This document shows positions 11,326 to 27,672 of a stretch of 64,000 nt of DNA, piece by piece. The notes beneath the pieces were generated by a model. It was not told the DNA's origin. It searched no databases and saw only the letters and a list, made by a program, of their open reading frames with translations. The translations under genes were made by a program, and so were the position numbers. Numbering within the stretch: position 1 is the stretch's first letter; the number at the start of each line of letters is the position of its first letter. Location of the stretch: contig QHUK01000010.1 of the NCBI GenBank assembly GCA_003222085.1, forward strand, positions 3,688-67,687, read 5' to 3'. This DNA comes from Gemmatimonadota bacterium. GTDB taxonomy: Bacteria; Gemmatimonadota; Gemmatimonadetes; Gemmatimonadales; GWC2-71-9.

Positions 11326-11396
11326 ACGGCCCCCTTGCCGGTCTTCTGGAGGGGTGTGATATTGAGCTTCGGACCCGAACAAATACCGAAGCCACC

Positions 11397-11537
11397 ATGG
11401 CTCTCTCGACGCCCCACCCTTCCCCCACCCCTCATCCACCGTCGCAGACGTCGTCCTGCCCCGATTGCGGTGGCGGGCTGGTGCGCCAATCGGGTTGCCT
11501 GGTGTGCGTGCAGTGCGGTTGGGCGAGGTGCGGGTAG
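11397..11537 (+). CDS. Candidate 46 aa zinc-ribbon micro-protein
   Basis: Translation from ATG 11397 gives MALSTPHPSPTPHPPSQTSSCPDCGGGLVRQSGCLVCVQCGWARCG. This contains CxxC-x9-CxxCxxC-x4-C. No clear SD is present. It is the tail of a longer artefactual ORF in the track. Confidence 0.4.
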   Translation: MALSTPHPSPTPHPPSQTSSCPDCGGGLVRQSGCLVCVQCGWARCG

Positions 11538-11542
11538 TGAAG

Positions 11543-11645
11543 CACGACGCCACGACGCCACGACGCTACGACGGACAGTCAACGCCGGGACCGCGGCAAC
11601 TCGCGCTACCCCTTGCCGTCGTGACGTCGTCACGTCGTTGCGTCG
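11543..11645. repeat. Long imperfect hairpin built from octamer arrays (CACGACGC x3-4 / inverted)
   Basis: The left arm is cacgacgccacgacgccacgacgctacgacgg (11543-11574). The right arm is ccgtcgtgacgtcgtcacgtcgttgcgtcg (11616-11645). The loop is about 41 nt. The element starts 6 nt after the zinc-ribbon ORF stop. Confidence 0.7.
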
Positions 11646-12658
11646 CCCTTCCGATTCTCGACGAGCGTCTTCGCGGCACCAAGTTCGTCTCGCTCGAAGC
11701 GAAGTCCGTCCTCAACTCGCCGCTGCAGACCGGCGTCGATTTCTGGTCGCTCAACCCCTACATCGGGTGCGAATTCGGCTGCACGTATTGTTATGCGCGC
11801 TACGCGCATCGCTATGCGGTGGAGCGAGCCCACGACGCGGGGCGGCTCTCCGACGAGGAGTTTGTGGAGTTCCGCGGACCGCACGGCTGGGAGGCGTTCG
11901 AGCAGCGTGTGTTCGTGAAGCACCAGCTGCTGGGCGCCCTGGAAGGCGATTTGCGCCGCTACTGGCGGTCCCTCGGTCCGACTGCCCGCCCGGCCACCCC
12001 CATCGTCATCGGCACCGCGACCGATCCGTACCAGCCGGCCGAGCGGCGGTTCCGGCTCACGCGAGGGATTCTCGAGCGGCTGGCGCGCTGCGAAGGGTTG
12101 AACATCGGCATCATCACCAAGAGCCCGCTCATCGCGCGCGACACCGACGTGCTGCTGCGCCTTCAGGAGCGCAGCGATCTCGAGGTCCACATCTCCCTCA
12201 CCACGGTGGACGTGGCGCTGATCCGGCAGGTCGAGGCGCGCTCCCCGATACCGGCGGTACGGCTCCGGGCGCTCAAGCGACTCGCCGACGCGGGCGTACG
12301 TGTGGGCTTGATCGTCGCGCCGGTCCTTCCGGGGATCACCGATGACCTACCCCATCTGGAAGCGCTCTTCCAGGCGGCACGGGAGGCCGGCGCCAGGTTC
12401 GTGCATGCCGGTCCGCTGCGTCTCTACTCCGCGGTGCGGGACCGCTTCCTCCCGATGCTCGAAGAGCAGTTCCCCCACCTCGTCGCGCGCTACCGGCGCG
12501 CGTACGAGGGCCGGAGCGGGGCGCCGCGCGACTATGCGCGCGCACTGGCCGCGCGCATCCAGAAGCTGCAAGCGCGATTCGGATTTCCGGTGAAGGAGGG
12601 GATGGCCGATCGCTGCGGGCGACGGCTGGCACCGGCGCAGCAAGAGCTCGGATTGTGA
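11621..12658 (+). CDS. Radical SAM protein (COG1533 / SplB-like 'DNA repair photolyase' family)
   Basis: It has the CxxxCxxC cluster 'NPYIGCEFGCTYCYARY'. The start is uncertain. I prefer the GTG at 11621 because upstream candidates (11537, 11465) would translate the octamer hairpin and overlap the micro-ORF. Confidence 0.8.
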   Translation: MTSSRRCVALPILDERLRGTKFVSLEAKSVLNSPLQTGVDFWSLNPYIGCEFGCTYCYARYAHRYAVERAHDAGRLSDEEFVEFRGPHGWEAFEQRVFVKHQLLGALEGDLRRYWRSLGPTARPATPIVIGTATDPYQPAERRFRLTRGILERLARCEGLNIGIITKSPLIARDTDVLLRLQERSDLEVHISLTTVDVALIRQVEARSPIPAVRLRALKRLADAGVRVGLIVAPVLPGITDDLPHLEALFQAAREAGARFVHAGPLRLYSAVRDRFLPMLEEQFPHLVARYRRAYEGRSGAPRDYARALAARIQKLQARFGFPVKEGMADRCGRRLAPAQQELGL

Positions 12659-13885: not shown

Positions 13886-14893
13886 CTAGCTCGAGTCGGG
13901 AAAGCTCGCAAGCGTGCCGACGCTCCCCCCCCTCTCTGCCATCATCTCCACGAGCGCCCGGATGGTCCCCGGCGCGTTGCCCTCGAGCCGGTTGTTCACG
14001 AGGATCAGCGCCTCCAAATGGCGCCGCATGACCTCGGCGACCAGGCGCCGCAGATCGTGTCGCACCTCCGGCTGGGGATCGCGGATGCGGTCGTAGGGCT
14101 CGAACAGCCTTACCGCGTCGGCGTACGCCCGCCCGGGGCGGAGCAGCGCGCGCGCCACGGTGAAGCCGGCGGGGAACGCCCACGGCAGCTCGAGCTGCTC
14201 GCCGATCGCCGGCATTTCGTTCCACGAATTGAACACATGGGCCACCCCGTGCCGCGCCAGCACCGCACCGTGGGCGTCGGTCAAGAGCTCCCGGTTCCGC
14301 AGCTCCACCGCGTAGCGGAAGTCGCGGGGCAGTCGCCGCAGGAAGCCGTCGAGCTCCTCCGCCCACCTGGCCGCCTCGGGGAGATCATGCCCTCGCATCG
14401 CCTGAAACTCGAACACGAAGGCGCCGGCATGGTCCGAGAACGCCCGCGCGTACGGCCCGAGCACTGCCTCCTTGAAAAGATCAGCGTTCAAGAAGTCGGG
14501 GTTCCGCTGACCCGCGAGGTTGCCCCAGCGCGGGTCCTGCGTGAAGCGCCGCGCCGTGATCCGATCCCACACCTTGCTCACGCACGGAAAGCCGGGGGGC
14601 AACGCCCGCGCGTACGCCGTGAGCACCTCTTCTGACGGCGGCTCGTAGAACGCGCTGTCGATCCCCACCGTGCGGAACAAGGGATAGCGCACGTACTCCT
14701 CGAGCCGACGGGCCGGCTGGGCGCTGCGATAGGGCCGATGATAGACCTCGCCCGCCCAGCCGTCGTACGTCCACGTGGAGGTACCGAACCGAATGGACGG
14801 CGGGATGTGTTGGGCGAGCGAGATCAGGGCGGCGGGCGGTGCAGGCAGCGCGGCGACATCGTCGAAGAGATTCGGCTGATCACGCCTGGACAT
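13886..14893 (-). CDS. DUF72 (UPF0759) family protein
   Basis: The N-terminal 'IRFGTSTWTYDGWAGEVY' signature and the roughly 335 aa length fit the family. Confidence 0.75.
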   Translation of the reverse strand: MSRRDQPNLFDDVAALPAPPAALISLAQHIPPSIRFGTSTWTYDGWAGEVYHRPYRSAQPARRLEEYVRYPLFRTVGIDSAFYEPPSEEVLTAYARALPPGFPCVSKVWDRITARRFTQDPRWGNLAGQRNPDFLNADLFKEAVLGPYARAFSDHAGAFVFEFQAMRGHDLPEAARWAEELDGFLRRLPRDFRYAVELRNRELLTDAHGAVLARHGVAHVFNSWNEMPAIGEQLELPWAFPAGFTVARALLRPGRAYADAVRLFEPYDRIRDPQPEVRHDLRRLVAEVMRRHLEALILVNNRLEGNAPGTIRALVEMMAERGGSVGTLASFPDSS

Positions 14894-15039
14894 TAGAAGT
14901 TGAAATATATCAATAGCTTACCATCGAAGTAACGGGCCTTGCGATGTCCTTGATCTTCGGGATATATTCGGGTCCCATTTACTACCCGACAATGCCAAAA
15001 ACTCCCCACCTGACGAGCGAGTCCGCGGCTTGCTGTTGG

Positions 15040-16284
15040 ATGCCGCTGTTCGCGTTGCGCTCCGAACTGGCGCGGCGGCCCGAACTCGCGTCCCACCCCG
15101 TGGCGCTCGTCGCACCCGACACCGCTCGCACCCCTCGGGTGTGGCAGGTCGTGCCGCTCGCCCGGCACGCCGGGGTGAAGCCGGGAATGACGGTCAGCCA
15201 GGCGATCGGACTCTGTCCCGCGCTCAAGCTGTGCGAGCCCGACCCGGTGCATTACGACGAGCAGTTCGAGCAGCTCATCGCTGCACTTGCCGTGGTAAGC
15301 CCCGTCGTGGAGCCGGTGGAGTTGGGGCGGGTGTTCGTGGGCACCGACGGATTGGAAGGGCTGTACGGAGGGCCGGAGGAGATCGTCGAGGCGATCAAAC
15401 GCGGAACGCGGAAGTGGGAACGCGGAACAGGCGAGCGATCTTCCAGCCCCTGTTCCGCGTTCCGCGTTCCGCGTTTCGCGTTTCGGGTGGGCTGGGGCCG
15501 CGGGAAATTCGTTTCCTGGGTGGCCGCGACCCGCGCAAAACCCGGAGCTGCGGTCATAGTGCCGGTGGGAGGGGAGGCGAAGTTTCTCGCTTCCCAGCCG
15601 CTCGCCGTGCTCCCGCTCGACCCCGACACACATCGCCGGCTGCAGCAGCTCGGCGTCAAGACGCTGGGCGCGCTCGTCGCGCTTCCGGAGGAAGCCGTCG
15701 TGTCGCAATTCGGTGGCCCGGGCCGGCGGCTGTGGCGGCTCGCGGCGGGACTCGTGTCGGAGCCGGTGGTGGGACGGGTCGTGCCCGAGCCGATCGTGGC
15801 CGCTCTCACGTTTTTCACCCCGGTCGGCGAGCGGGACCTGCTCGCCCACGCACTGGACAAGCTCGTCGACCGCGCGCTCGGAGATCCGCGTCGCAGCGGC
15901 TGGCGCGTGCAGGTCGTCCGGGTGCGCGCCGAGCTCGAGCACGGCGCCTCCTGGCTCGTCACCGCGACCCTCAAAGACCCATCCGCGACGCGGGAGCACA
16001 TCGCGGCACCGCTCAAGACGCAGCTCGAGCGGTCGCCGCCCGTCGGTGCGGTCGAGCGGCTCGTCGTCGAGTTTACCGCCTTCGCTCCCGGCACCGCCGA
16101 GCTGCAGCTGTTCGCGCATGATGCGAGCGCCGCGGCTCGCGCCGGGCGACGGCGTGCGCTCCAAGGCGCCGCCCGGGAGATCGCGCTCCGAATCAGACGG
16201 CCGATGCTGTATCACGTCATCGAGGTGCAGCCATGGTCCCGCCTTCCCGAGCGGCGGTACGCGCTGATCGACTATGAACCGTGA
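15040..16284 (+). CDS. imuB: ImuB-like Y-family DNA polymerase homolog (mutasome subunit)
   Basis: 'MPLFALRSELARRPELASHPVALV...ARHAGVKPGMTVSQA' is the typical ImuB N-terminus, and the gene lies directly upstream of dnaE2. The ATG at 15040 is chosen over the listed 14944 start. There is a possible clamp-binding 'LQLF'. Confidence 0.8.
   Translation: MPLFALRSELARRPELASHPVALVAPDTARTPRVWQVVPLARHAGVKPGMTVSQAIGLCPALKLCEPDPVHYDEQFEQLIAALAVVSPVVEPVELGRVFVGTDGLEGLYGGPEEIVEAIKRGTRKWERGTGERSSSPCSAFRVPRFAFRVGWGRGKFVSWVAATRAKPGAAVIVPVGGEAKFLASQPLAVLPLDPDTHRRLQQLGVKTLGALVALPEEAVVSQFGGPGRRLWRLAAGLVSEPVVGRVVPEPIVAALTFFTPVGERDLLAHALDKLVDRALGDPRRSGWRVQVVRVRAELEHGASWLVTATLKDPSATREHIAAPLKTQLERSPPVGAVERLVVEFTAFAPGTAELQLFAHDASAAARAGRRRALQGAAREIALRIRRPMLYHVIEVQPWSRLPERRYALIDYEP
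15397..15486. repeat. GGAACGC-type heptamer hairpin element inside imuB
   Basis: The left arm is ggaacgc ggaagtg ggaacgc ggaacag. The loop is 17 nt. The right arm is cctgttcc gcgttcc gcgttcc gcgtttc gcgtttc. The ORF stays open and reads KRGTRKWERGTGERSSSPCSAFRVPRFAFRV. Confidence 0.8.
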
Positions 16285-16582
16285 ACAAACGCGGAAGTTG
16301 GAGCGCGGAACGCGGAACAATGCGGACAGGCTTCGGGCGCTCAACGTTCAGCAGCAGGTGAAGGTCGATCTGGATGACGGTGGAGTGCCGGTAGTCGTGA
16401 CACGGGAAACGGGAGATGGGAAACGTGTTGAGTCGATCGGTGAGACGTGGCGGATCGATGATGAATGGTGGCGATTGCCTATTGTGCGGCGATATGTGGA
16501 AGTGATTCTCGAAGGTGGCGGGCGGGTTGTGTTGTTCGAAGATCTGTCGACGGGCGAGTGGTGGATCCAGAAGCCCGCCTGA
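16274..16582 (+). CDS. Small ORF between imuB and dnaE2 with a 'WRIDDEWWR' motif (possibly a DUF6504-like ImuB-associated domain)
   Basis: The 102 aa ORF ends '...GETWRIDDEWWRLPIVRRYVEVILEGGGRVVLFEDLSTGEWWIQ'. It overlaps the imuB stop in the +1 frame. Its first ~20 codons are repeat-derived, so the true start is uncertain. The family assignment is from memory. Confidence 0.55.
   Translation: MNREQTRKLERGTRNNADRLRALNVQQQVKVDLDDGGVPVVVTRETGDGKRVESIGETWRIDDEWWRLPIVRRYVEVILEGGGRVVLFEDLSTGEWWIQKPA
16287..16320. repeat. GGAACGC-type heptamer array (left arm of a split pair)
   Basis: The sequence is aaacgc ggaagtt ggagcgc ggaacgc ggaacaa. It lies immediately after the imuB stop. Confidence 0.75.
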
Positions 16583-16617
16583 ACGTTCCGCGTTCCGACT
16601 TCCGCGTTCCAACTTCC
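16583..16617. repeat. GGAACGC-type heptamer array, inverted (right arm of a split pair)
   Basis: The sequence is acgttcc gcgttcc gacttcc gcgttcc aacttcc. Its reverse complement, ggaagtt ggaacgc ggaagtc ggaacgc ggaacgt, matches the 16287-16320 arm. It fills the whole spacer between the small ORF stop and the dnaE2 ATG. Confidence 0.75.
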
Positions 16618-19600
16618 ATGTACGTCGAGCTCCACTGCCACTCCGCTTTCTCGTTCCTCGACGGCGCCTCGCTCCCCGAGCAGCTCGCGCTCACCGCGTC
16701 GCAGCTCGGCTACCCCGCGCTCGCGCTCACCGACCACAACGGCCTGTACGGCTCGATGGCGTTCGCGCAAGAAGCGAAACAGCTCGGCATCCAGGCGATC
16801 ACCGGCGCGGAGCTGACCCTACTCGACGGCTCTCACGTGACGATTCTCGCGGAGACGCCTGAGGGGTACGCGAACCTCTGCCGGTTGATTACGGAGGCTC
16901 ATCTCGGTCGTGAAGACCGGCGCGACCCGCGGCTCGATTTCGCCTCGCTCGAAGCCCGGCACGCAGGGCTCATCGTGCTGTCGGGATGCCGCAACGGGCT
17001 GCTCCCTCAGGTGCTGCGGCGCGACGGCCCGGCCGCTGTCCGTCGCGTCGCCGAGCGGTGTCGTGCGGTGTTCGGGAAGGACAACTTTGTCGTCGAGCTG
17101 CAGCGCAATTATGTACGGGGCGATCTGGCCCTGACCCGGGCGCTGAAAGCCCTCGCGGACGACGCGCAGCTGGGCGTCGTGGCGTCGGGCAACGTGCATT
17201 ATCACGCCCGCCCGCGTCACCGTCTGCACGACGTGCTGGTGGCGATCCGGCACCGCACCACGCTCGACGGCTCGCACGACGTGCGGCATGCGAACAGCGA
17301 GTTCTTCCTGCGCCCGCACGAAGAGGTCGAGGCGCTGTTTCGTGACTGTCCGAATGCTGTCGCTAATACTCTAGCCCTGGCGGAGCGCTGCCGGGGGTTC
17401 GATCTCACGCGGGATCTGGGATATCGGTTTCCCGATTTCAACGGCGCCGAGCGCGCCCCCGCCCCGCGAGCGCTCGCCGAGCTGTGCCGGGCGAGACTGG
17501 AAGAGCGCTACCCTCCGGATTCCCCCCACCGCGACGCCGCGGAGCGGCGGCTCGCCGAGGAGCTGCGGCTGGTCGAGCACCATGCGCTCTCGGGGTTCTT
17601 TCTCGTCTATCACGACCTGTTCGACCTGGCCCGGGAAGTCGCCGTCGACGTGCGGCGCGGCTCGCGGCGGGCGCAGGGCGGCCTGCTCCCCGGTCGCGGT
17701 CGCGGCTCATCGGTCTCCTCCGTCGTGTGCTACCTGCTCGGCCTCTCGCACATCGACCCGGTCGCGACCCGGCTGTTCATCGGGCGGTTCCTGAGCGAGA
17801 CCCTCGCCTCGGTGCCGGACATCGACCTCGATTTCCCGCGCGAGATCCGCGAGGAGCTGATCCGGCGGGTGTACAAGCGGTACGGCGACGAGCACGTCGG
17901 GCTCGTCTGCTCGTTCCCCACCTATCGCCTGCGCTCGACGGTGCGGGAGATCGGCAAGGCGCTCGATCTGCCGCCGGGCGAGATCGAGCAGGTCGCGAAA
18001 CTGGCGGACCGGCGATCCGGCGGACTGGCGGACGAATTGGACCAGCTTCCCGGATTCGCGGGGCGACGGAGCGCGCCGCTCTGGAAAGAGCTGTGCGAGC
18101 TCGCCGAGGAGATCGCGGGGCTGCCGCGGCACATTTCCCAGCACGTGGGCGGGATGGTCATCTCGAGCCGGCCGCTCGTGGAGATCGTGCCGCTCGAGCG
18201 CGCCGCCATGGAAGACCGGGTGGTATGCCAGTGGGACAAGGATGCCTGCGACGACGCACGCTTCATCAAGATCGACTTCCTGGCGCTCGGCATGCTGTCG
18301 CTCGTGGAAGAGTGTGTCGAGCGGATCGCCGTGCACCAGGGAGCGCCACCCGACCTCTCGCGCATCGACTTCGAGGACCCCGCGGTGTACGACCGCATCT
18401 GCCGGGGCGACACGGTTGGACTGTTCCAGATCGAGAGCCGGGCGCAGATCCAGATGATCCGTCGCACCCGACCCACCAACCTCGAAGACCTGGCGGTCGA
18501 GGTCGCGATCGTGCGGCCCGGCCCGATCGTGGGAGGAGCGGTGAACCCGTACGTGCGACGCCGCGAGGAGCAGCGCCGCGCCCGGGCCGCCGGTCGCGCC
18601 TACGAGCCGCCGCTCGAGCATCCCCTGCTCAAGGAAGCGCTCGACGAAACGCTCGGCGTGATCCTCTATCAGGACCAGGTGCTGCAGGTGTGCCAGGCGC
18701 TCGCCGGATTCACGGCGGGCCAGGCCGAGGCCTTGCGGCGGGCGATGAGCCGGCGGCGCAGCCGCGAGTTGATGGCGGGGTTCTGGGAGGAGTTCAAGGA
18801 GGGCGCGGCGGCGCGCGGCGTCCCCGAGCAGACAGCAGAGCGCGTGTTCACACAGGTGATCGCGTTCTCGGAGTTCGGTTTCCCCAAGTCGCACGCCGCG
18901 GCGTTCGGCCTGCTCGCCTACCAGTCGGCGTGGCTCAGGCATTATCACCCGGCCGAGTACTATTGCGCCCTCTTCAACAACCAGCCGATGGGGTTCTACT
19001 CGCTCGACGCGCTGGGACGCGATGCCCAGCGGAACGGCGTCGAGATCCGGCTGCCGGATGTGAATCTGAGTGACGTATGGAGCACGATAGAGCGGGAAAG
19101 GGGAAACGGGAAACGGGAAACGGGAGGCGTTCGGATCGGGCTTGGGTTCGTGCGCGACTGGAGCGAGGAGACGGCGACGGCGGTCGTGATCGAGCGCGAG
19201 CGGCGCGGGCCGTACGCGAGTATCGGCGACTTCGTGCGCCGGGCGCCGCCCAAGCTCAAGCGCACCGCGATCGAGCATCTCGTGTGGGTGGGAGGATGCG
19301 ACGGCTTCGGGCTCACCCGGCGCGAGCTCCTGTGGCAGGTGGGGCTGTGGCTGCCTCCGGAATCGGAGCACGGGGTGGACGCGCGCGCACGGCGGCAGCT
19401 CGAGCTGGCGCTCAATCATCCCCACGAGGGACTCCGATTCGGCGGCCTCGAGGCGGCCGAGCGGCTGCTCGCGGAGTATGACGTCCTGGGGTTCGCCGCG
19501 AGCGGCCATCCGCTCTCGCTGCTCCGCGGGGCGCTGCCGCCGGGTATCGTGCAGAGCGACACGCTCCCCCGGCTCGAGCACGGAGCGTGGGTCGAAGTCG

Positions 19601-19953
19601 CCGGGCTGGTGGTCGCGCGCCAGCGACCCGAGACGGCGAAGGGATTCATATTTGTGCTGGTCGAGGATGAGGCGGGGATGGTGAACGTGATCGTGCGGCC
19701 CGACGTGTACGAGCGCTATCGCACCGCGGTCCGCGGCGAGCCGCTCTTGTGGGTGCGCGGTAAGCTCGCCAAGGACGACGGGACGGTGAACGTGATCGCG
19801 GAAGAGGCGAGGGGGCTCAAAGTCGGAACGTGGAACGCGGAAGGCGGAACGGACGGCGGGCCTGCCAGTTCCGCGTTCCCACTTCCGCATTCCGCGTTCG
19901 ACTTTCTTAAGTCCATGCGTCGCCTCGCGCCGGAGTCCAAGGATTGGGGGTAG
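16618..19953 (+). CDS. dnaE2: Error-prone DNA polymerase III alpha-like subunit DnaE2
   Basis: It has the PHP-domain N-terminus 'MYVELHCHSAFSFLDGASLPEQL...LALTDHNGLYG', a length of about 1111 aa, and sits in an imuB-dnaE2 arrangement. Confidence 0.9.
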   Translation: MYVELHCHSAFSFLDGASLPEQLALTASQLGYPALALTDHNGLYGSMAFAQEAKQLGIQAITGAELTLLDGSHVTILAETPEGYANLCRLITEAHLGREDRRDPRLDFASLEARHAGLIVLSGCRNGLLPQVLRRDGPAAVRRVAERCRAVFGKDNFVVELQRNYVRGDLALTRALKALADDAQLGVVASGNVHYHARPRHRLHDVLVAIRHRTTLDGSHDVRHANSEFFLRPHEEVEALFRDCPNAVANTLALAERCRGFDLTRDLGYRFPDFNGAERAPAPRALAELCRARLEERYPPDSPHRDAAERRLAEELRLVEHHALSGFFLVYHDLFDLAREVAVDVRRGSRRAQGGLLPGRGRGSSVSSVVCYLLGLSHIDPVATRLFIGRFLSETLASVPDIDLDFPREIREELIRRVYKRYGDEHVGLVCSFPTYRLRSTVREIGKALDLPPGEIEQVAKLADRRSGGLADELDQLPGFAGRRSAPLWKELCELAEEIAGLPRHISQHVGGMVISSRPLVEIVPLERAAMEDRVVCQWDKDACDDARFIKIDFLALGMLSLVEECVERIAVHQGAPPDLSRIDFEDPAVYDRICRGDTVGLFQIESRAQIQMIRRTRPTNLEDLAVEVAIVRPGPIVGGAVNPYVRRREEQRRARAAGRAYEPPLEHPLLKEALDETLGVILYQDQVLQVCQALAGFTAGQAEALRRAMSRRRSRELMAGFWEEFKEGAAARGVPEQTAERVFTQVIAFSEFGFPKSHAAAFGLLAYQSAWLRHYHPAEYYCALFNNQPMGFYSLDALGRDAQRNGVEIRLPDVNLSDVWSTIERERGNGKRETGGVRIGLGFVRDWSEETATAVVIERERRGPYASIGDFVRRAPPKLKRTAIEHLVWVGGCDGFGLTRRELLWQVGLWLPPESEHGVDARARRQLELALNHPHEGLRFGGLEAAERLLAEYDVLGFAASGHPLSLLRGALPPGIVQSDTLPRLEHGAWVEVAGLVVARQRPETAKGFIFVLVEDEAGMVNVIVRPDVYERYRTAVRGEPLLWVRGKLAKDDGTVNVIAEEARGLKVGTWNAEGGTDGGPASSAFPLPHSAFDFLKSMRRLAPESKDWG
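19094..19128. repeat. GGGAAAC heptamer tandem array inside dnaE2
   Basis: The array is gggaaag gggaaac gggaaac gggaaac gggaggc, translated as ERERGNGKRETGG. A related array, gggaaac gggagat gggaaac, occurs at 16404-16424 in the small ORF. Confidence 0.7.
19825..19899. repeat. GGAACGC-type heptamer hairpin element in the dnaE2 3' coding region
   Basis: The left arm is ggaacgt ggaacgc ggaaggc ggaacgg. The loop is 15 nt. The right arm is gttcc gcgttcc cacttcc gcattcc gcgttc. It shares a 21-nt identical stretch (gttccgcgttcccacttccgc) with the reverse complement of the imuB element arm. Confidence 0.8.
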
Positions 19954-19958
19954 CGGCA

Positions 19959-19986
19959 TTGACATCGTCACGGCGCCGGATAGCCT
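19959..19986 (+). promoter_or_regulatory. Candidate sigma70-type promoter giving a leaderless transcript
   Basis: The layout is TTGACA (19959-19964), 16 nt, then TAGCCT (19981-19986). The ATG of the downstream gene lies 6 nt after the -10 element. Confidence 0.35.
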
Positions 19987-19992
19987 TGCTCC

Positions 19993-21057
19993 ATGCCGAT
20001 CCCCACCGAACCCATTGGCAGCATCCCCAGACCCCCGGAGCTCGTCGCGGGGATGCAGCAGCTCGCCACCGGTCGCCTCACGCGCGACCAGTTCGCCCGA
20101 CTCCAGGACGCGGCGATCCACGACACCATCCGGCGGTTCGAAGCGACCGAGTCCCCCGTCATCACCGACGGTGAGCAGGCGAAACCCAGCTTCGCCACCT
20201 ACCCGATCCACGGGCTCACGAACCTCGCACCCGACGGCGTCACGATCCCGTTCGCCGACGGACACACGCGGCAGCTCCCCCGGCTCACCGCCGGGCCGTT
20301 CCGCTATCAGACGTACGCCGACGCATATCTCGCGAGCGCGCGAGCGCACGCCCACGTGCCCGTCAAACAGGCGGTGATCGCGGCCTCGGCGCTCAGCCTG
20401 CTCTATCCGGAGGACGGCATCACAGGGTATCCGCGCGAAGCGTTTCTCAAGGATCTCGTGCGCGAGGCGGAGACGGACATCCGCCGGTGTCTCGCGAAGG
20501 GTGCCCACGTGGTGCAGCTCGATTTCACCGAAGGCCGGCTCGCGGTGAAGTTCGATCCATCGCTGGGCCTGCTCAGGATGTTCGTGGACCTGAACAATCA
20601 GGTACTCGAGCGCTTCACGGCCGACGAGCGCCGCAGGATCGGCGTTCACACCTGTCCGGGCGGCGACCGGGACTCGACGCACAGCGCGGACGTGGACTAC
20701 GCGGAGCTCCTGCCCACGCTGTTTGAGCTGAAGGCGACGAACTTCTACATCCAGTGCGCGAGTGAGCCGGACCGCGGCAGGGTGCTGCGCCTCATGAAGG
20801 AGCACAGCAAGCCCGGCCAGCGGATTTTCGTCGGCGTGATCGATCCGATCGATCCACGGGTTGAGACGCCCGACGAAGTCCGGGACCGGGTCCTGGAGGC
20901 GGCGGAGTACATCGCGCTCGACCGGCTCGGCACCACCGACGACTGCGGCTTCGCGCCCTTCGGCGACGACACCTCCACCGACCGCGAGACGGCATTCGCC
21001 AAGATCCGCGCACGCGTGGCCGGCACCGCGCTGGCGGCCCGGGCGCTGCGGGCGTGA
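19993..21057 (+). CDS. Cobalamin-independent methionine synthase (MetE C-terminal-like) family protein
   Basis: At 354 aa, '[14 protein letters not shown]' and '...[14 protein letters not shown]...[13 protein letters not shown]' are typical of the COG0620/methionine synthase II family. Confidence 0.7.
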
Positions 21058-21670: not shown

Positions 21671-22105
21671 ATGCGCTGGTCGATATTTGCGCTGCTTGTC
21701 GCGGCGCCGGTGTTGGCGGCGGCCCAGGCGCCGCCCGCCGGCGCGAGTGAGCCGTTCGTGGTGGAGTATTACTACAAGACCCGCTGGGGCTTCGCCGACG
21801 AGTTCATCCGGCTCTTCAAGAAGAACCACTTCCCGGTATTGAAGCGCGAGATCGAGCTGGGGCACATCCAGCGGGTCACCGCGGAGGCACCGAGGTTCCA
21901 CGGGACCGAGGAGGGCCGCTGGGACTATCGCATAACGATCGTGTGGAAGAACGCCGCCGCACCGCACGAGCCGTTCCCCGAGGCGGAGCTCAAGCGCCTG
22001 TTTCCTGACCAGGACACGTTTCGGCGCGAAGAGCAGCGGCGTTTCGAAATCCTCGCCGCGCACTGGGACCTGCCGGTGGTCAGCGTGGATCTGACGCGGC
22101 CGTAA
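21671..22105 (+). CDS. Hypothetical secreted protein
   Basis: It has the signal peptide '[20 protein letters not shown]' and no recognisable family. Its 3' end overlaps the convergent lhr by 26 nt. Confidence 0.5.
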
Positions 22106-25100
22106 AGGCGGGCCGGCTCTTTCCGAGATACGTCCGCACGAGCGGAGCCACGCGCCCGCGCACCAGAGCGGACTTGAGCCGCTCCCGTTCATCCGGCGCG
22201 ACCTCCACCAGGTACCGCTCGCCGCTCCCAGCTCCCTCCTTGATCGCGACGGGGATCCCGTCTCGATACAGGATCCGGTTCGTCGCAACCCCGGCGAGCA
22301 CGTCTCCCGGCGTCACGATCCCTACCAGGTTGAGCGGGTCGGCCCCGCTCACGGCCACCAGCTCCCCGCGGGGCTCCTCGCGCCGCACGCGGCGGAGCAA
22401 CCCCACGGCTTCCGGCAGGGCGTATTGCTCGCCCGAGAACCCGCCCACGAAGCGCCCGCCGCGAATCTCGCCGCGCGCCTCGAGCCGGCGGTACACCCGC
22501 AGGATGTCGCGCCACGGCGTGAGCAATGTCTCGCGCGTCACCAGCCGACGGAACACCACCCCGTAGCGGCGCAGCAGCTGCCACGCGACCGCTTCCGCGA
22601 CGGCCTCTTCCTGGAGCGGCGCTGCCAGGCGCCGCACCCGCGACCATCGCCCCGCCGTCTCGACCCCGAACGGCGCTACACGCCCCCGTCGCCGGAACCC
22701 GCCCCCCCCGATAGGGCGGCGCCGGTCGGACGGCACGAGCAGCGCTCGCAGCCCGGCGAAGCTGTCCGAGGTCACCAGCCCCCACGCGACCAGCTCCCCG
22801 AGTCCCTTCTCGACTTCGGTGCGTAACAGTCCGGTCGCGTTCGTGAGGTCGCCAAAGAACGACGCGCCGCGCTCGTCGAGCGCCTCGAGCACGGCCCGGG
22901 CCGAGTGTGACAGTGACAGGTGCGCTGGATCGGCCTGCACCGTGAGGGACTGCCAGACCACTCCCCGCTCCCTGCGAAACAGCGCAATCGGCGTGGTGCG
23001 AATCGGCCCGGCTTTGTGACCCCCCCCGTTCGACGGCGCCGCCGGCGACAACCGGCCCCAGGCGATCTCCCCGGACAGGCACAGGCCGTCGAGCCACAGA
23101 GGGTCGTAGTCGCCGAGCCGCGCGGGGAGCACGTCCGCCTCCCAGGCCGCCGCCGGCGCCTCGTATCCGTCGAGCAGCTCGAGCACTGCACCAAGCCCGT
23201 CCGGCCCCTCGGCCCGGGCATCGGGTGCGGCGCGCTGCCACTCGAGCAGGAACCGCATGAAGTCCGCCGCGGTGACCGGCTCGATTTCCTGGCGCAGCCG
23301 GTCGAGCGTGTAGCGGTGGATGCGGGCGAGCAGGCGCCGCTCGCACCATTCGAGCTCCACGACGCCGGGAGTGAACCGGCCGCGCAGCACGAAGCCCTCG
23401 TGCTCGAGCGCGCCGAGCGCGAAGTCCACGTCCCCGGCCGGGACGCCCAGCGATCGTGCGATGTCGGCGGCCGTCGTGGGACCGACCGCCTCGAGCCGGC
23501 CGCGCACCAGCTCGCGCACCGCATCCTCGCGCGTCCATACCTTGGCCCGATCTCGTTCCGGCACCACCAGCGGCGGCTCGCACCGAGCTCCCGGGAACAC
23601 CGCCTCCAGCATCGGCAGCCGCTCGGCGGCCACGCACAGGTGCGGGTCGTGCGACAGCATCCCCGCTCGTCCAGCTCTCGCCAGCTCCTCGAAATACCCT
23701 TGCTGTTCCGCGTTCCGCGTTCCGACTTCCGCGTTGGGAATGGCGCCCATCACGAGCAACGCATCGTGCAGCTCGTCGGCGCTCGCGACCTCCGGCCACG
23801 CCTCCTCCTTCACCCGATCAATCGCCGCCTGATCGAGCTTGCCCAGCTCCTCGGCGGTCTTCACGTCAAGGCCGCGCCGTGTGATCACGGCCTGAGTGCG
23901 GCGCTCCTCGAGCGGCGCGTCGTCGAGGAAGGCGTAGGGCTTGGCATTGATCACCTCGTGGGCGAGCGGCGACGGCTCCGTCGTGTCGCGCGCCACGAGC
24001 GTGAACTGTCCCGCCGCCATCCCCTCGAGCACGCCCTTCAGACCCGGGAAGTCCATCGCTTCCAGCAGACAGTCCGCGATGGTCTGCTGCACCAGCGGAT
24101 GGTCGGGAATCTCCCGGTCCCCCACGAGGTTCTCGGGGCACGCGAGCTGGTCGGGGAACACGGCGGCCACCAGGTCCTCCGCGTCCATGCGCTGGAGCGG
24201 CGTGGGCACCTTCTTCCCGCCTCGCGCGCGCAGCACGGCGAGCGCCCGCGTCGCGTTCCAGCGCCAGCGCGAGCCGAACATCGGCGCGTCCAGCATCGCC
24301 TGCACCAGCAGGTGCTCCGCCGTCTCGGGCTTCAGATACTGGAACACGTCCTCGAGCGGGAAGCTGTGCTGGGGCCCGAGCGACAGGACGATCGCGTCCT
24401 CGGTGGCCGCGGCCTGGAGCTCGAAGTTGAAGCTGCGGCAGAACCGCTTGCGGAGCGCGAGTCCCCACGCGCGGTTCACCCGACTCCCGAACGGCGCGTG
24501 CAGCACCAGCTGCATCCCCCCCGCCTCGTCGAAGAAGCGCTCCAACACGAGCGTCTCCTGGGTCGGGGTGACCCCGAGGATCCTCTTCGAGGCCTCGAGA
24601 TACTCGACCATCTGCCGGGCCGCGGCCTCGGGGACGCCCGGGATCTCGCGCGCGAGCCACGTATTCGCCTCGCGGACGTCACCTAGCCGGGCGTCGACGT
24701 CCCGGCGCAGGCGAGACACCTCTTGCGATAGCTCCGGCGTGCGACCCGGCGCCTCCCCCAGCCAGAACGGGATCGACGGGGGCTGGCCCTGGGCGTCCAC
24801 GACGCGCACCTGGCCCGACTCGATCCTCTCGATCCGATACGATCGGTTGCCCAGCTGGAAGATGTCGCCGGGCATGCTCTCGATGGCGAAATCCTCGTTG
24901 AGCGTTCCGACGAAGGTCTCTGTCGGCTCGAGGATAACGCGGTAGTCGCCGATGTCCGGAATCGCCCCGCCCGACGTGAGCGCGGCGAGTCGGGCGCCGC
25001 GCCGCGCGCGCAGCCGGCGATTCACGCCATCGTAGTGGACGTAGGCGCCGCGCCGCCCGCGCCGCGTCGTGAATCCGTCGGCGAGCATCTGCACCACGGC

Positions 25101-26456
25101 GTCGAAGTCCTTGCGCGACACGTCGCGATACGGGTACGCCCCGCGCACCAAGTCGAACAGGCCGTCCTCCTGCCACTCCTCGCACGCCACCGCGGCCACG
25201 ATCTGCTGCGCCAGGATGTCGAGCGGGTGCGCCGGGATGATCAAGCGGTCGAGGCGGCGCTCCCGTGCGGCCCGCACCAGCGCGGCGCACTCGATCAGCT
25301 CGTCGCGCGACAACGGGAACAGCCGGCCCTTGGGAACGGCGGCGAGATGGTGTCCCGAGCGACCTACGCGCTGCAACAGCGTCGCGATCGAGCGGGTCGA
25401 GCCGATCTGACACACCAAGTCCACCGCACCGATGTCGATCCCTAGCTCGAGCGACGCCGTCGCGACCAGCGCCTTGAGCTTTCCCTCCTTGAGCCTGGTC
25501 TCCGCGTCGAGGCGCTTTTCCTTGGAGAGGCTGCCGTGGTGCGACGTCACTTGATCCGCGCCCAGCCGCTCGGAGAGATGCAGCGTCAACCGCTCCGCCA
25601 GCCGGCGCGTGTTCACGAACACCAGCGTGGTGCGATGCTCGAGGATCAGCTGGACCAGGCGCTCGTAGATCTCCTCCCACACCTCGGCCGCCATGACCGC
25701 CTCGAGCGGCGAGGAGGGAATCTCGATCGCCAGGTCGAGCGTGCGGGCGTGGCCGGAGTCGATCACGCTCGGGGCTTGGGACTCGGGGCTGGGGGCTCGT
25801 TTGGTGCCCACCAGAAACTGGGCGATGTCCTCGATGGGCTTCTGCGTCGCCGAGAGCCCGATGCGCTGGAGACGCCGCCCGGCGAGGTGCTCGAGCCGTT
25901 CGAGCGACAGCGCCAGGTGGCTCCCCCGCTTGTCGCGCGCCACGGCGTGGATCTCGTCCACGATCACGGTGCGCACGCCGCGCAGCATCTCGCGGGCGCG
26001 CTCGGACGTGAGGATGAGATAGAGAGACTCGGGCGTGGTGACGAGGATGTGCGGGGGCCGCCGCACCATCTCCTGGCGCTCCGCGCCCGGCGTGTCGCCG
26101 GTCCGCACCAGCGTGCGGATCTCCACATCCGGCAGGCACGATGCTTCCAGCGTGCGGCGGATCTCGGCAAGGGGCTCTGCCAGGTTCTTCTGAACGTCGT
26201 TCGAGAGCGCTTTGAGCGGCGAGACGTACACGACCTGCGTGCCGTCGGTGAGGGTGCCGTCGAGGCCCTGACGCAGCAGTGAATCGATGGCGGCGAGAAA
26301 GGCCGCGAACGTCTTACCGGAGCCGGTGGGCGCGGCGATCAGGGCGTTCCGGCCCGCCTGGATGAGTGGCCACGCGCGCCGCTGTGGCTCGGTGGGCTCG
26401 CGGAATCGCGACCCAAACCAGCGCTCGATGACGGGGTGAAAGCCAGACAACGACAT
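22080..26456 (-). CDS. lhr: Lhr-family ATP-dependent helicase (large DEAD/DEAH-box)
   Basis: It has '[39 protein letters not shown]', 'VIVDEIHA', '[10 protein letters not shown]', and the long C-terminal Lhr extension. The start MSLSGFHPV at 26456 is chosen. Confidence 0.9.
23703..23735. repeat. Solo GGAACGC-type heptamer array inside lhr
   Basis: The array is ctgttcc gcgttcc gcgttcc gacttcc gcgtt. No partner arm lies within about 100 nt. On the minus strand it is translated as [14 protein letters not shown]. Confidence 0.7.
25771..25798. repeat. GGGGCTN heptamer array inside lhr
   Basis: The array is ggggctt gggactc ggggctg ggggctc, translated on the minus strand as ...[11 protein letters not shown]... 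Confidence 0.5.
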
Positions 26457-26475
26457 ACTCAAATATGGCGAAGAT

Positions 26476-27672
26476 TTACCGAAGCAGCGACACCCCTCGC
26501 GCCGCGGCGATCCGCTCGACCGTCTCCCCAATCTTGTTGTTCGGGGTCGACGCGCCCGCGGTCACTCCCACGGTCAGGGGCCCCGCAGGGAGCCACCCGC
26601 TCACGCGCCGCTCCTGCGTGGCCCCCGGAGGGCGGAACCGGATCGTCCCGGCCTCCGGGTCGATGCAGCTCGCATCCTCGATGTGATAGGTCGGCGCCTT
26701 GTCGTGGCAAATGGCGGCGAGGTGCGTCGTGTTGCTCGAGTTGTATCCCCCGATCACGACCATGAGGTCGAGCGGCTCGGCGATGAGCTTCAGCACTGCA
26801 TCCTGACGGTCCTGCGTGGCCGAGCAGATCGTGTCGAACGTGCGGAAGTGCTCGGGCAGCGCGGCCTCACCGTACCGCTGCGCCATGCTCCGCCGGATCT
26901 CGGCCGCGATGGCGAGCGATTCCCCGGAGAGCATCGTGGTCTGATTGGCGACGCCCACGCGGACGAGGTCGCGATCGGGATCGAACCCGGGCGACAACTT
27001 GTCCGCAAAGAGCTCAAGGAACCGCTCCCCGCTCCCCGCTCCCTCGATGTAGGCGCAGACTTCACGCGCTTCCGCCATGTCGCGCACGACGAGGTACTTC
27101 CCGCCCGGGTATTTGGTGACTTGGCTCGAGGTGGCCTTTGTCTCCTCGTGGTAGTACTTGCCGTGGACGACGGCGGTGAACCCGTCCTTCGCGTAGGAGT
27201 CGACGCGCTTCCAGACGTTGAGCACCGATCCGCACGTCGTGTCCACGAGGACGCATCCGACCGCGCGCAGCCGCTCGAAGTCCTTCACGGTGACCCCGAA
27301 GGCCGGAAGAATGACGACGTCCGCGGGGGTGATCCCGCGGAAGTCGAACTCACCTTCGTCCGGCCGGTGCAGGAACTCGACCCCCATGCTCTGCAGCTTC
27401 TTGTTGACGTGCGGATTGTGGATGATTTCGCCGACCAGGAACACCCGCCGCTCGGGGAACTTGGTGCGGGTTTCGTAGGCGTATTCGACGGCGCGGTCCA
27501 CTCCGTAGCAGAACCCGAACTCGCGGGCGAGTTTGAACGTGAGGTCGCCCATCGTGAGGACGTAACCCTGGGCGCGAATGCGATCCACCACGCGGCTGTG
27601 ATAGTCCGCCGTGAGCGCACCCTCGATGTCGCTCTTGAGGCCGAAGCCGCGTCGAAAGTAGGTCTGCTCCAC
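26476..27672 (-). CDS. ispH: 4-hydroxy-3-methylbut-2-enyl diphosphate reductase (long form)
   Basis: It has '[13 protein letters not shown]', 'HNPHVN', '[14 protein letters not shown]' and '[12 protein letters not shown]'. Confidence 0.9.

Follow-up and report, generated by a model that had tools for sequence, protein, structure and literature searches.

Organization of the locus

The window, i.e., the whole stretch of 64,000 nt analysed from contig QHUK01000010.1 of a Gemmatimonadota bacterium (assembly GCA_003222085.1), carries three tightly packed co-directional genes at 14992-19953 on the forward strand, encoding a Y-family polymerase, a protein of 102 aa and DnaE2, of which the first two overlap by 11 nt and the last two are separated by a 35-nt spacer. 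The genes and the features around them are as follows.

13886-14893 (-): DUF72 gene, divergent upstream neighbour (PF01904, E 8e-26)
14939-14968 (+): predicted sigma-70-type promoter, -35 TTGCGA, 18-nt spacer, -10 TATATT (consensus match only)
14956-14972 (+): candidate LexA operator, direct repeat TTCGG-GATATA-TTCGGG (shared motif)
14992-16284 (+): iPolY (imuY), putative Y-family polymerase scaffold of 430 aa without fused ImuB-C (PF00817, E 4.8e-15)
15395-15485 (no strand): palindromic (GGAACGC)n/(GCGTTCC)n hairpin, in frame within iPolY, arms of 35 nt
16274-16582 (+): imuB-C, predicted standalone ImuB C-terminal domain protein of 102 aa (homology to Sphaerobacter ImuB-C)
16287-16319 (no strand): GGAACGC-type repeat arm, coding for ImuB-C residues about 5-16 (repeat pairing)
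16584-16617 (no strand): inverted repeat arm filling the 35-nt imuB-C/dnaE2 spacer (92% complementary to 16288-16312)
16618-19953 (+): dnaE2 (DnaE2X type), error-prone C-family polymerase of 1111 aa (NF004225, 970.7 bits)
19819-19901 (no strand): palindromic hairpin, in frame, in the variable linker ahead of the conserved DnaE2 C-terminal tail (repeat pairing)

The preliminary description had reported an imuB-dnaE2 cassette without imuA, a 102-aa ORF between the two genes and a divergent DUF72 gene upstream of imuB, and all of these features are present. The comparison of gene order in relatives, which it had also proposed, gave the same order of Y-family polymerase, imuB-C and dnaE2 in 80/80 related Gemmatimonadota loci.

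The Y-family protein

The Y-family ORF, matched by PF00817 in a Pfam scan, ends at 16284 and has in-frame starts at ATG 15040 (the one assumed earlier), ATG 14992 and ATG 14944 (the longest ORF). ATG 14992 is the likelier start, since the resulting 430 aa is the commonest homolog length and this codon is a short way downstream of the predicted -10 element, while ATG 14944 was rejected as lying upstream of that element and overlapping the candidate operator. The protein stops short of ImuB-C, and this domain is encoded by the separate gene.

At the active site, the position of DinB's catalytic Asp-Glu pair is taken by Gly-Arg, and Trp stands in place of the N-terminal Asp; among 47 homologs G112 is invariant and W16 nearly invariant at these carboxylate positions. 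The active site of this Y-family protein is thus inactive. It aligns end to end with the iPolY-wE2X of Sphaerobacter thermophilus (ACZ39475; 38% identity, E 7e-62), and the alignment takes in the conserved terminal peptide EV.PWSR.PERR..LI. In the AF2 model (mean pLDDT 81) the Y-family fold extends across residues 4-366.

The conserved parts of the iPolY tail are LQLFARDA, ARAGRRRAL..AA.EI..R and EVQPWSRLPERRYALI. LQLFARDA, conserved to at least 90% across 83 tails, aligns with QETLF of Sphaerobacter, its likeness to a clamp-binding motif being a pattern match only. The segment ARAGRRRAL..AA.EI..R....L, which is helical in the AF2 model, was placed in register with RecA residues 14-44 by a weak hhalign match (E 0.006, probability 6%), and in pairwise Smith-Waterman comparison of the tail with the RecA N-terminus the score was not above that of shuffles.

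The 102-aa protein

The small ORF (16274-16582) lies in the +1 frame relative to the polymerase gene, overlaps its stop codon by 11 nt and encodes the motifs WRIDDEWWR, RRYVEV, LFEDL and GEWW. It had been considered beforehand that this ORF might have no homologs, which is not the case: 370 close homologs were found, together with 918 cluster representatives at E<=1e-3, and the wider family occurs in other phyla too. The median dN/dS is about 0.2, so that the ORF is under purifying selection and did not arise by chance.

In BLASTP the protein is 42% identical to the published ImuB-C of S. thermophilus (ACZ39476; E 4e-20) and matches residues 278-331 of the Thermogutta ImuB (E 2e-5), and its family profile matches the canonical fused ImuB C-terminus (hhalign 95%, E 2.4e-8) as well as the C-termini of four fused Gemmatimonadota ImuBs. 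The 102-aa protein is thus ImuB's C-terminal domain on its own, and it is the only ImuB-C match in this genome. Two roles had been proposed for it, a third mutasome subunit or a detached ImuB C-terminal module; the homology to ImuB-C bears out the second and not the first, and the idea that the locus encodes this part as a separate polypeptide holds, the gene being homologous to the published standalone ImuB-C.

A search of Pfam and NCBIfam with the small ORF gave no match at any threshold. For PF20114 (DUF6504; gathering score 24.2 bits), the family named in the preliminary description, the window protein was without a match even at E 10 and none was found in a six-frame scan of the genome. 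The suggested link to DUF6504 nevertheless holds in substance, since three of the five ImuB-C proteins published for systems of this type score above the cut-off, and 12 of 47 members of the wider family of the window protein are matched at E<=1 (best 3.3e-5). The protein is thus a diverged relative that the model does not reach.

The AF2 model of ImuB-C (pLDDT 85) has six beta strands over residues 27-99 and 20 disordered N-terminal residues. Foldseek with the confident model found nothing better than E 0.3 in the PDB, which fits the published description of ImuB-C as a new fold; when PDB sequences were searched with the family profile, the sole match was a spurious de novo TIM barrel, which was discarded.

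DnaE2

The dnaE2 gene starts at ATG 16618 (MYVELHCHS...) and ends at 19953. Its product scores 970.7 bits against NF004225 'error-prone DNA polymerase' (cut-off 939) and contains the PHP, pol3 alpha, finger, HhH and OB domains, with a linker, of variable length among relatives, that joins '...EEARGLKV' to the conserved tail 'FLK..RR.AP.SKDWG'. Over the N-terminal 400 aa it shares 59% identity with Sphaerobacter DnaE2X and 29-35% with DnaE2A. Plasmid DnaE2 copies are no more than 37% identical to it. In a small tree of the N-terminal 400 aa with no outgroup, in which DnaE2X as a whole was not recovered as one clade, the protein and Chloroflexi DnaE2X make up a clade (100/100) separate from DnaE2A. 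Judged by these comparisons, the iPolY and DnaE2 of the window are orthologs of the published system's iPolY and DnaE2X.

Absence of imuA

Profile and single-query searches turned up no ImuA-like gene, either at the locus or elsewhere in the genome, which is 93% complete. An ImuA HMM built from seven sequences was used in place of NF033429, because the latter stays below its own cut-off in every control genome including Caulobacter; its best match in this genome is RecA. The custom HMM likewise found only RecA genome-wide, so that the absence of imuA noted earlier also stands in the genome-wide profile searches suggested then. When seven single ImuA queries were added, the only further match was an ORF on contig 4, which is a KaiC-like ATPase and not ImuA (PF06745, E 4e-90). 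As a positive control, in four other Gemmatimonadota genomes the same HMM picks up an ImuA adjacent to the fused ImuB. The recA-recX genes are on contig 28.

Predicted promoter and candidate operator

The predicted promoter at 14939-14968 is the only promoter-like site in 14700-20300 (shuffle mean 0.4), and the direct repeat TTCGG-N6-TTCGG(G) overlaps its -10 element. The same motif is found just upstream of recA and, in two copies, of lexA in this genome, where lexA lies outside the operon on contig 55; genome matches number 15, vs 3 for a reversed-pattern control. Among 69 related loci, at least 48 have the repeat upstream of the polymerase gene with almost no variation (background 0.009 per 190 nt), and in other Gemmatimonadota genomes two tandem copies stand ahead of lexA in 5/5 and ahead of recA in 3/5. 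Because the motif also precedes lexA and recA, it suggests that the operon is under LexA control through the direct repeat, a candidate phylum-specific LexA box, with LexA expected to bind at 14956-14972. No paper describing a TTCGG-N6-TTCGG LexA box in Gemmatimonadota was found.

Palindromic repeats

The hairpin within iPolY (15395-15485) has 35-nt arms that are 89% complementary and a 17-nt loop. It corresponds to an 18-residue gap in the alignment with Sphaerobacter iPolY, sits in a loop of hypervariable length across relatives and encodes a segment that is disordered in the model (pLDDT 42-63). At the arm within imuB-C (16287-16319), close relatives retain 'TRNAEGGTRN', and distant ones are without the arm and begin 'MVTHTRTPLRADRLRALN'. 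Since the small ORF is in place in 80/80 loci, most of them without repeat copies there, the repeats entered both gene junctions later, in one subclade.

The hairpin family fills four linker or junction positions of the operon. Both recA and lexA also have copies some 0.5-0.9 kb upstream, and a half-copy is in frame in an Lhr helicase gene. The operon itself would be repressed via the direct-repeat LexA box. That the (GGAACGC)n hairpins are functionally tied to the SOS regulon, e.g., by an effect on transcript stability, on translational coupling or on DNA structure, is considered unlikely, the alternative being neutral REP-like DNA.

Comparison with known systems

The arrangement is already in the literature, and the 102-aa gene is real and not a new component. 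A solo ImuB-C accompanying DnaE2 and an inactive DinB was described in 2013 (PMC3765255), the Kyrpidia tusciae type operon with a RecA-NT motif by Timinskas & Venclovas 2019 (PMC6511836), who found no imuA in genomes with this type of system, and the DnaE2X group and the 'split ImuB' in NAR 2026 (PMC12926913). The supplement of PMC12926913 lists five such systems modelled with AlphaFold-multimer, at confidence scores of about 0.8, and the published models seat ImuB-C on the DnaE2 PHP domain.

The S. thermophilus system (ACZ39475/ACZ39476/ACZ37666) has the same three products, a dead Y-family site, no imuA and the same conserved ...EV.PWSR.PERR... tail, with identities to the window of 38% for iPolY, 42% for ImuB-C and 59% for the DnaE2 N-terminus. 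Relative to the published DnaE2X-iPolY-ImuB-C-RecA system, the window differs in its host, Gemmatimonadota being unnamed in the main text and the available supplement parts of PMC12926913, in an ImuB-C subtype that falls under the Pfam DUF6504 threshold, and in the palindromic repeat insertions in two linkers and both gene junctions.

The cassette of Deinococcus deserti, the one member of this kind that has been studied genetically, shares the order imuY, imuB-C, dnaE2 and the lack of imuA; it is SOS-controlled, for which the window offers a candidate operator only. UV mutagenesis of D. deserti was abolished without imuY, dnaE2 or recA (PMC8072749). There lexA is first in the operon, whereas in the window lexA is elsewhere and the operator-like repeat alone precedes the operon, and the two DnaE2 proteins are 31% identical over the N-terminal 400 aa.

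The canonical ImuA-ImuB-DnaE2 system (ImuABC) of Mycobacterium tuberculosis, Caulobacter and Pseudomonas likewise combines a dead Y-family scaffold with DnaE2 and a homologous ImuB-C and is damage-inducible, as the motif suggests for the window cassette, but in it ImuB and ImuB-C are one fused protein, there is an ImuA subunit and its DnaE2 belongs to the DnaE2A clade. This canonical form occurs in other Gemmatimonadota families. With Escherichia coli Pol V (UmuD'2C-RecA-ATP) the cassette would share the logic of a Y-family protein, a small beta-rich accessory and RecA under LexA, an analogy made in PMC6511836; in Pol V the Y-family subunit is the active polymerase, the UmuD' fold is different and no C-family polymerase is involved.

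Predicted mechanism and alternative explanations

The locus is very probably a member of the published split-ImuB DnaE2X-iPolY-ImuB-C-RecA system, i.e., an imuY-imuB-C-dnaE2 cassette forming an SOS-type mutagenesis operon in which ImuA is absent. By homology to the published systems, DNA damage would lead to RecA-stimulated LexA cleavage and free the direct-repeat operator over the -10 element, and the three genes would be co-transcribed, with imuB-C translationally coupled to the polymerase gene through the observed 11-nt overlap. The Y-family protein, whose catalytic carboxylates are lost, would serve as a scaffold with a tail bearing the clamp-binding-like LQLF motif, the helix weakly resembling the RecA N-terminus and the conserved terminal peptide. 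The beta-barrel ImuB-C, a fused part of ImuB in canonical systems, would dock DnaE2 for lesion bypass, in a complex in which it may contact the PHP domain, and RecA itself is presumed to stand in for ImuA, which is not encoded.

A different role for ImuB-C, mainly that of a damaged-DNA sensor or DNA-binding recruiter guiding polymerases to lesions and not of the DnaE2-docking module of a split scaffold, was proposed by Aravind et al. 2013 (PMC3765255), based on solo ImuB-C found with DinB, UmuC, Ku/ligase or SplB-like enzymes where DnaE2 is absent, and the fold is without a PDB relative that could settle its function. We regard this as unlikely, since in this phylum ImuB-C always lies between iPolY and dnaE2 and the published models place it on DnaE2 (PMC12926913), although sensing and docking are not mutually exclusive. 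A canonical imuA or imuA-imuB working with this cassette could be hidden in the unassembled ~7% of the genome, considering the completeness of 93% and the canonical cassettes of other Gemmatimonadota families; this is very unlikely, as published surveys give genomes bearing this system type without imuA (PMC6511836), the Y-family genes detected in this genome number just two (iPolY and one that is DinB-like), and in the Gemmatimonadota sample strong standalone and weak fused ImuB-C matches fall in different families.

It is still harder to credit that the 102-aa protein is a functional replacement of ImuA, a new third subunit unrelated to ImuB: its gene does fill a slot in an imuA-less cassette, but its homology lies with the ImuB C-terminal domain and with neither RecA nor ImuA, its some 80 residues form an all-beta barrel and lack a P-loop fold, and it is exactly the ImuB-C domain that is missing from the polymerase here. 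The small ORF lies between the two inverted arms (16287-16319 and 16584-16617), the left one encoding part of its first ~15 residues, which might make the ORF a cargo or by-product of the palindromic repeat and not a genuine cellular gene; this explanation was rejected as having next to no probability, given the same ORF position in 80/80 loci, the repeat-free relatives, the wider family in other phyla and the dN/dS of about 0.2.

Under the preferred reading of a split-ImuB cassette, one soil Gemmatimonadales lineage would use an ImuA-less DnaE2 mutasome. The analysis provides better annotation for a small gene missed by Pfam and NCBIfam and, for a phylum where no LexA operator was found described, a candidate for one. 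Sister families have the canonical fused imuA-imuB form, and this contrast within one phylum could be of help in testing the proposal, made in the literature, that ImuABC descends from the split form.

Organization of the Locus

Within a 3.54-Mb Gemmatimonadales-type assembly (93% complete, about 68% G+C), the window occupies positions 3688-67687 of contig 14. Three co-directional ORFs were found on its + strand, and the upstream divergent gene was assigned to DUF72, both in agreement with the preliminary description.

14992 (most likely start) to 16284, +, Y-family polymerase homolog iPolY (PF00817, E 4.8e-15)
16274-16582, + (+1 frame), 102-aa ORF, with its ATG 11 nt ahead of the polymerase stop codon
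16618-19953, +, dnaE2, real start ATG 16618 (MYVELHCHSAFSFLDGAS), NF004225 "error-prone DNA polymerase" at 970.7 bits against a cut-off of 939

For iPolY, ATG 14992 is preferred because the resulting 430 aa is the commonest homolog length and because this codon lies just downstream of the sole promoter-like site (predicted -35 at 14939, -10 at 14963-14968).

The 102-aa Protein and ImuB-C

The 102-aa ORF is a real gene. Its product has 370 homologs with 64-96% identity, every one about 90-105 aa long, and when its family profile was run against 1.84 billion cluster representatives, 918 matched at E<=1e-3, the best 150 of them all small proteins. Pairs drawn from 81 orthologs differed on average by 0.31, 0.25 and 0.56 at first, second and third codon positions, with a median dN/dS of about 0.2. 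The AlphaFold2 model (47-sequence alignment, pLDDT 85) consisted of six predicted beta strands over residues 27-99, preceded by 20 disordered N-terminal residues. In some orthologs, large insertions of up to about 50 residues were located between predicted strands 2 and 3 (locus L093, 4916-5368; also L072 and L084), and the N-terminal segment "DRLRPL" is duplicated in the ortholog at L072.

Several independent comparisons show clear homology, by which the 102-aa protein is identified as a standalone ImuB-C domain. It shared 42% identity (E 4e-20) with Sphaerobacter thermophilus ImuB-C ACZ39476 (sequence from the supplement of PMC12926913), and its family profile aligned with the C-terminal 50 residues of a canonical ImuB encoded in a lexA-imuA-imuB-dnaE2 operon (hhalign 95%, E 2.4e-8) and, in other Gemmatimonadota families, matched four fused ImuBs at their C-termini. 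Two further alignments of the window protein covered residues 444-530 in another canonical ImuB and residues 278-331 in the 334-residue Thermogutta ImuB1 (BLASTP E 2e-5). The earlier suggestion of a separate polypeptide representing a detached ImuB C-terminal module is supported by this homology, and the link it drew to DUF6504 is broadly correct: PF20114 (DUF6504) was matched at E<=1 by 12 of 47 diverse family members, while Pfam and NCBIfam scans of the window protein itself gave no match. PF20114 scored above cut-off for the published standalone ImuB-C of Kyrpidia, Deinococcus deserti and Alicyclobacillus, and missed those of two Chloroflexi, whose subtype resembles the window protein's. 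A Foldseek search of the ImuB-C model against the PDB found no relative, which agrees with the published view of ImuB-C as a novel beta-barrel (PMC12926913).

iPolY and DnaE2

The Y-family protein is catalytically dead, since the Asp-Glu pair of DinB is aligned with Gly-Arg; the catalytic-site substitutions were kept in 47 homologs. It aligned end to end with Sphaerobacter "iPolY-wE2X" (38% identity, E 7e-62), including the terminal peptide EV.PWSR.PERR..LI. This peptide is one of three conserved segments in the tail, together with LQLFARDA, which resembles a clamp-binding motif by pattern match only, and ARAGRRRAL..AA.EI..R, which lines up in register, though weakly, with RecA's N-terminal helix (hhalign E 0.006; pairwise not significant). 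In the AlphaFold2 model, residues 4-366 formed a confident Y-family fold and the tail was of low confidence, as would be expected of a partner-binding region.

The iPolY loop after GLEGLYG.PE is hypervariable across the phylum (homolog alignment A3, columns about 140-245; window residues about 135-170), with low-complexity inserts ranging from none to about 100 residues, and it is here that the palindromic insert of the window is found.

The N-terminus of DnaE2 was 59% identical to Sphaerobacter DnaE2X versus 29-35% to DnaE2A proteins, and identity to any plasmid-borne DnaE2 was at most 37%. In a small tree, the window DnaE2 and Chloroflexi DnaE2X formed a 100/100 clade apart from DnaE2A, whose side includes one canonical Gemmatimonadota DnaE2.

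Absence of ImuA and Distribution of the Two Architectures

In the window's genome, the best match of NF033429 (ImuA) was RecA, followed by recX, and RecA was the only match to an HMM made from seven ImuA sequences spanning five phyla. In four other Gemmatimonadota genomes this HMM detected ImuA (E 5e-10 to 2e-20), in each case directly ahead of a fused ImuB, so the negative result is meaningful within the 93% completeness of the assembly, and the lack of imuA noted in the preliminary description is upheld. One single ImuA query also touched a double-domain KaiC-like ATPase (contig 4, 6823-8451, +; PF06745, E 4e-90), which apart from RecA was the only RecA-superfamily match to the ImuA queries and was rejected as a candidate.

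The order iPolY, ImuB-C, DnaE2 was kept in all 80 Gemmatimonadota loci retrieved. Among 151 sampled Gemmatimonadota genomes, 56 had an ImuB-C match: strong standalone matches came mostly from the window's own family, and weaker ones from 440-985-codon frames in other families, four of which were checked and are canonical fused ImuBs. Canonical imuA-imuB with fused ImuB-C was found in other families at L095-L098 (genomes G029, G051, G135 and G027), with dnaE2 adjoining at L095, indicating that both architectures coexist within Gemmatimonadota.

Candidate LexA Operator

At 14956-14972, the -10 hexamer is overlapped by a direct repeat, TTCGG-GATATA-TTCGGG. At least 48 of 69 related loci have this repeat ahead of iPolY in nearly unchanged form, while their proteins diverge to 52% identity. 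In the window's genome, TTCGG-N6-TTCGG(G) was also present just upstream of lexA in two copies (contig 55, 124532-124575) and of recA (contig 28, 25657-25673), with 15 genome-wide matches versus 3 for a control pattern. Two copies preceded lexA in all five other genomes tested (6/6 with the window's; L099-L107), and the motif preceded recA in three of the five (4/6 with the window's). It resembles the alphaproteobacterial LexA box, GTTC-N7-GTTC, and our literature search yielded no description of a LexA motif for Gemmatimonadota. TTCGG-N6-TTCGG(G) is a candidate LexA box of Gemmatimonadota, to which LexA would bind.

A further TTCGG-N6-TTCGGG copy (11375-11390, - orientation) directly precedes a Cys-rich micro-ORF of 46 codons (ATG 11398) and a gene for a radical SAM protein (11465-12658, PF04055), reversed relative to them; both genes may be members of the SOS regulon.

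Palindromic and Heptamer Repeats

About 55 complete copies of the (GGAACGC)n/(GCGTTCC)n hairpin, mostly intergenic, occur in the 3.5 Mb genome, and four sites of this family lie within the 5-kb mutasome operon.

15395-15485, hairpin element, in frame in the hypervariable disordered iPolY loop
16287-16319 and 16584-16617, hairpin arms at both junctions of imuB-C
19819-19901, hairpin element, in frame in the variable linker ahead of the conserved DnaE2 tail

An origin of the imuB-C gene from these repeats was considered. The operon sites are common to close relatives (L016, L017) and absent from distant ones, which possess an ImuB-C beginning MVTHTRTPLRADRLRALN; this rules out such an origin and indicates that the hairpins are later invaders of tolerant linkers.

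Further copies precede recA (contig 28, 25074-25188) and lexA (contig 55, 123616-123717) by about 0.5-0.9 kb, and the Lhr helicase gene (22080-26531, -) carries an in-frame half-copy (23706-23723). The nearness of these hairpins to genes of the SOS response and of repair may be non-random. Separately, a GGGAAAC x3 heptamer run (19094-19128) inside dnaE2 encodes ERERGNGKRETGG, and a related run lies inside imuB-C (16396-16425).

Relation to Known Systems

ImuB-C was defined by Aravind et al. 2013 (PMC3765255), who also pointed to solo copies that accompany DnaE2 and an inactive DinB. The Kyrpidia-type operon, which combines inactive PolY with standalone ImuB-C and DnaE2, was described by Timinskas and Venclovas 2019 (PMC6511836), who detected no imuA in the genomes concerned and proposed RecA as the replacement. 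A 2026 survey (PMC12926913) named the DnaE2X-iPolY-ImuB-C-RecA system, presented it as a "split ImuB" from which ImuABC may have evolved, and listed AlphaFold-multimer models for five systems of this type. In Deinococcus deserti, imuY, dnaE2 and recA are all needed for UV mutagenesis (PMC8072749).

At the sequence level, the locus has the defining features of the DnaE2X-iPolY-ImuB-C-RecA system, and we infer that its products form a protein complex. The kind of system is already known; the novelty lies in the host phylum, unnamed in the main text of the papers on this system.
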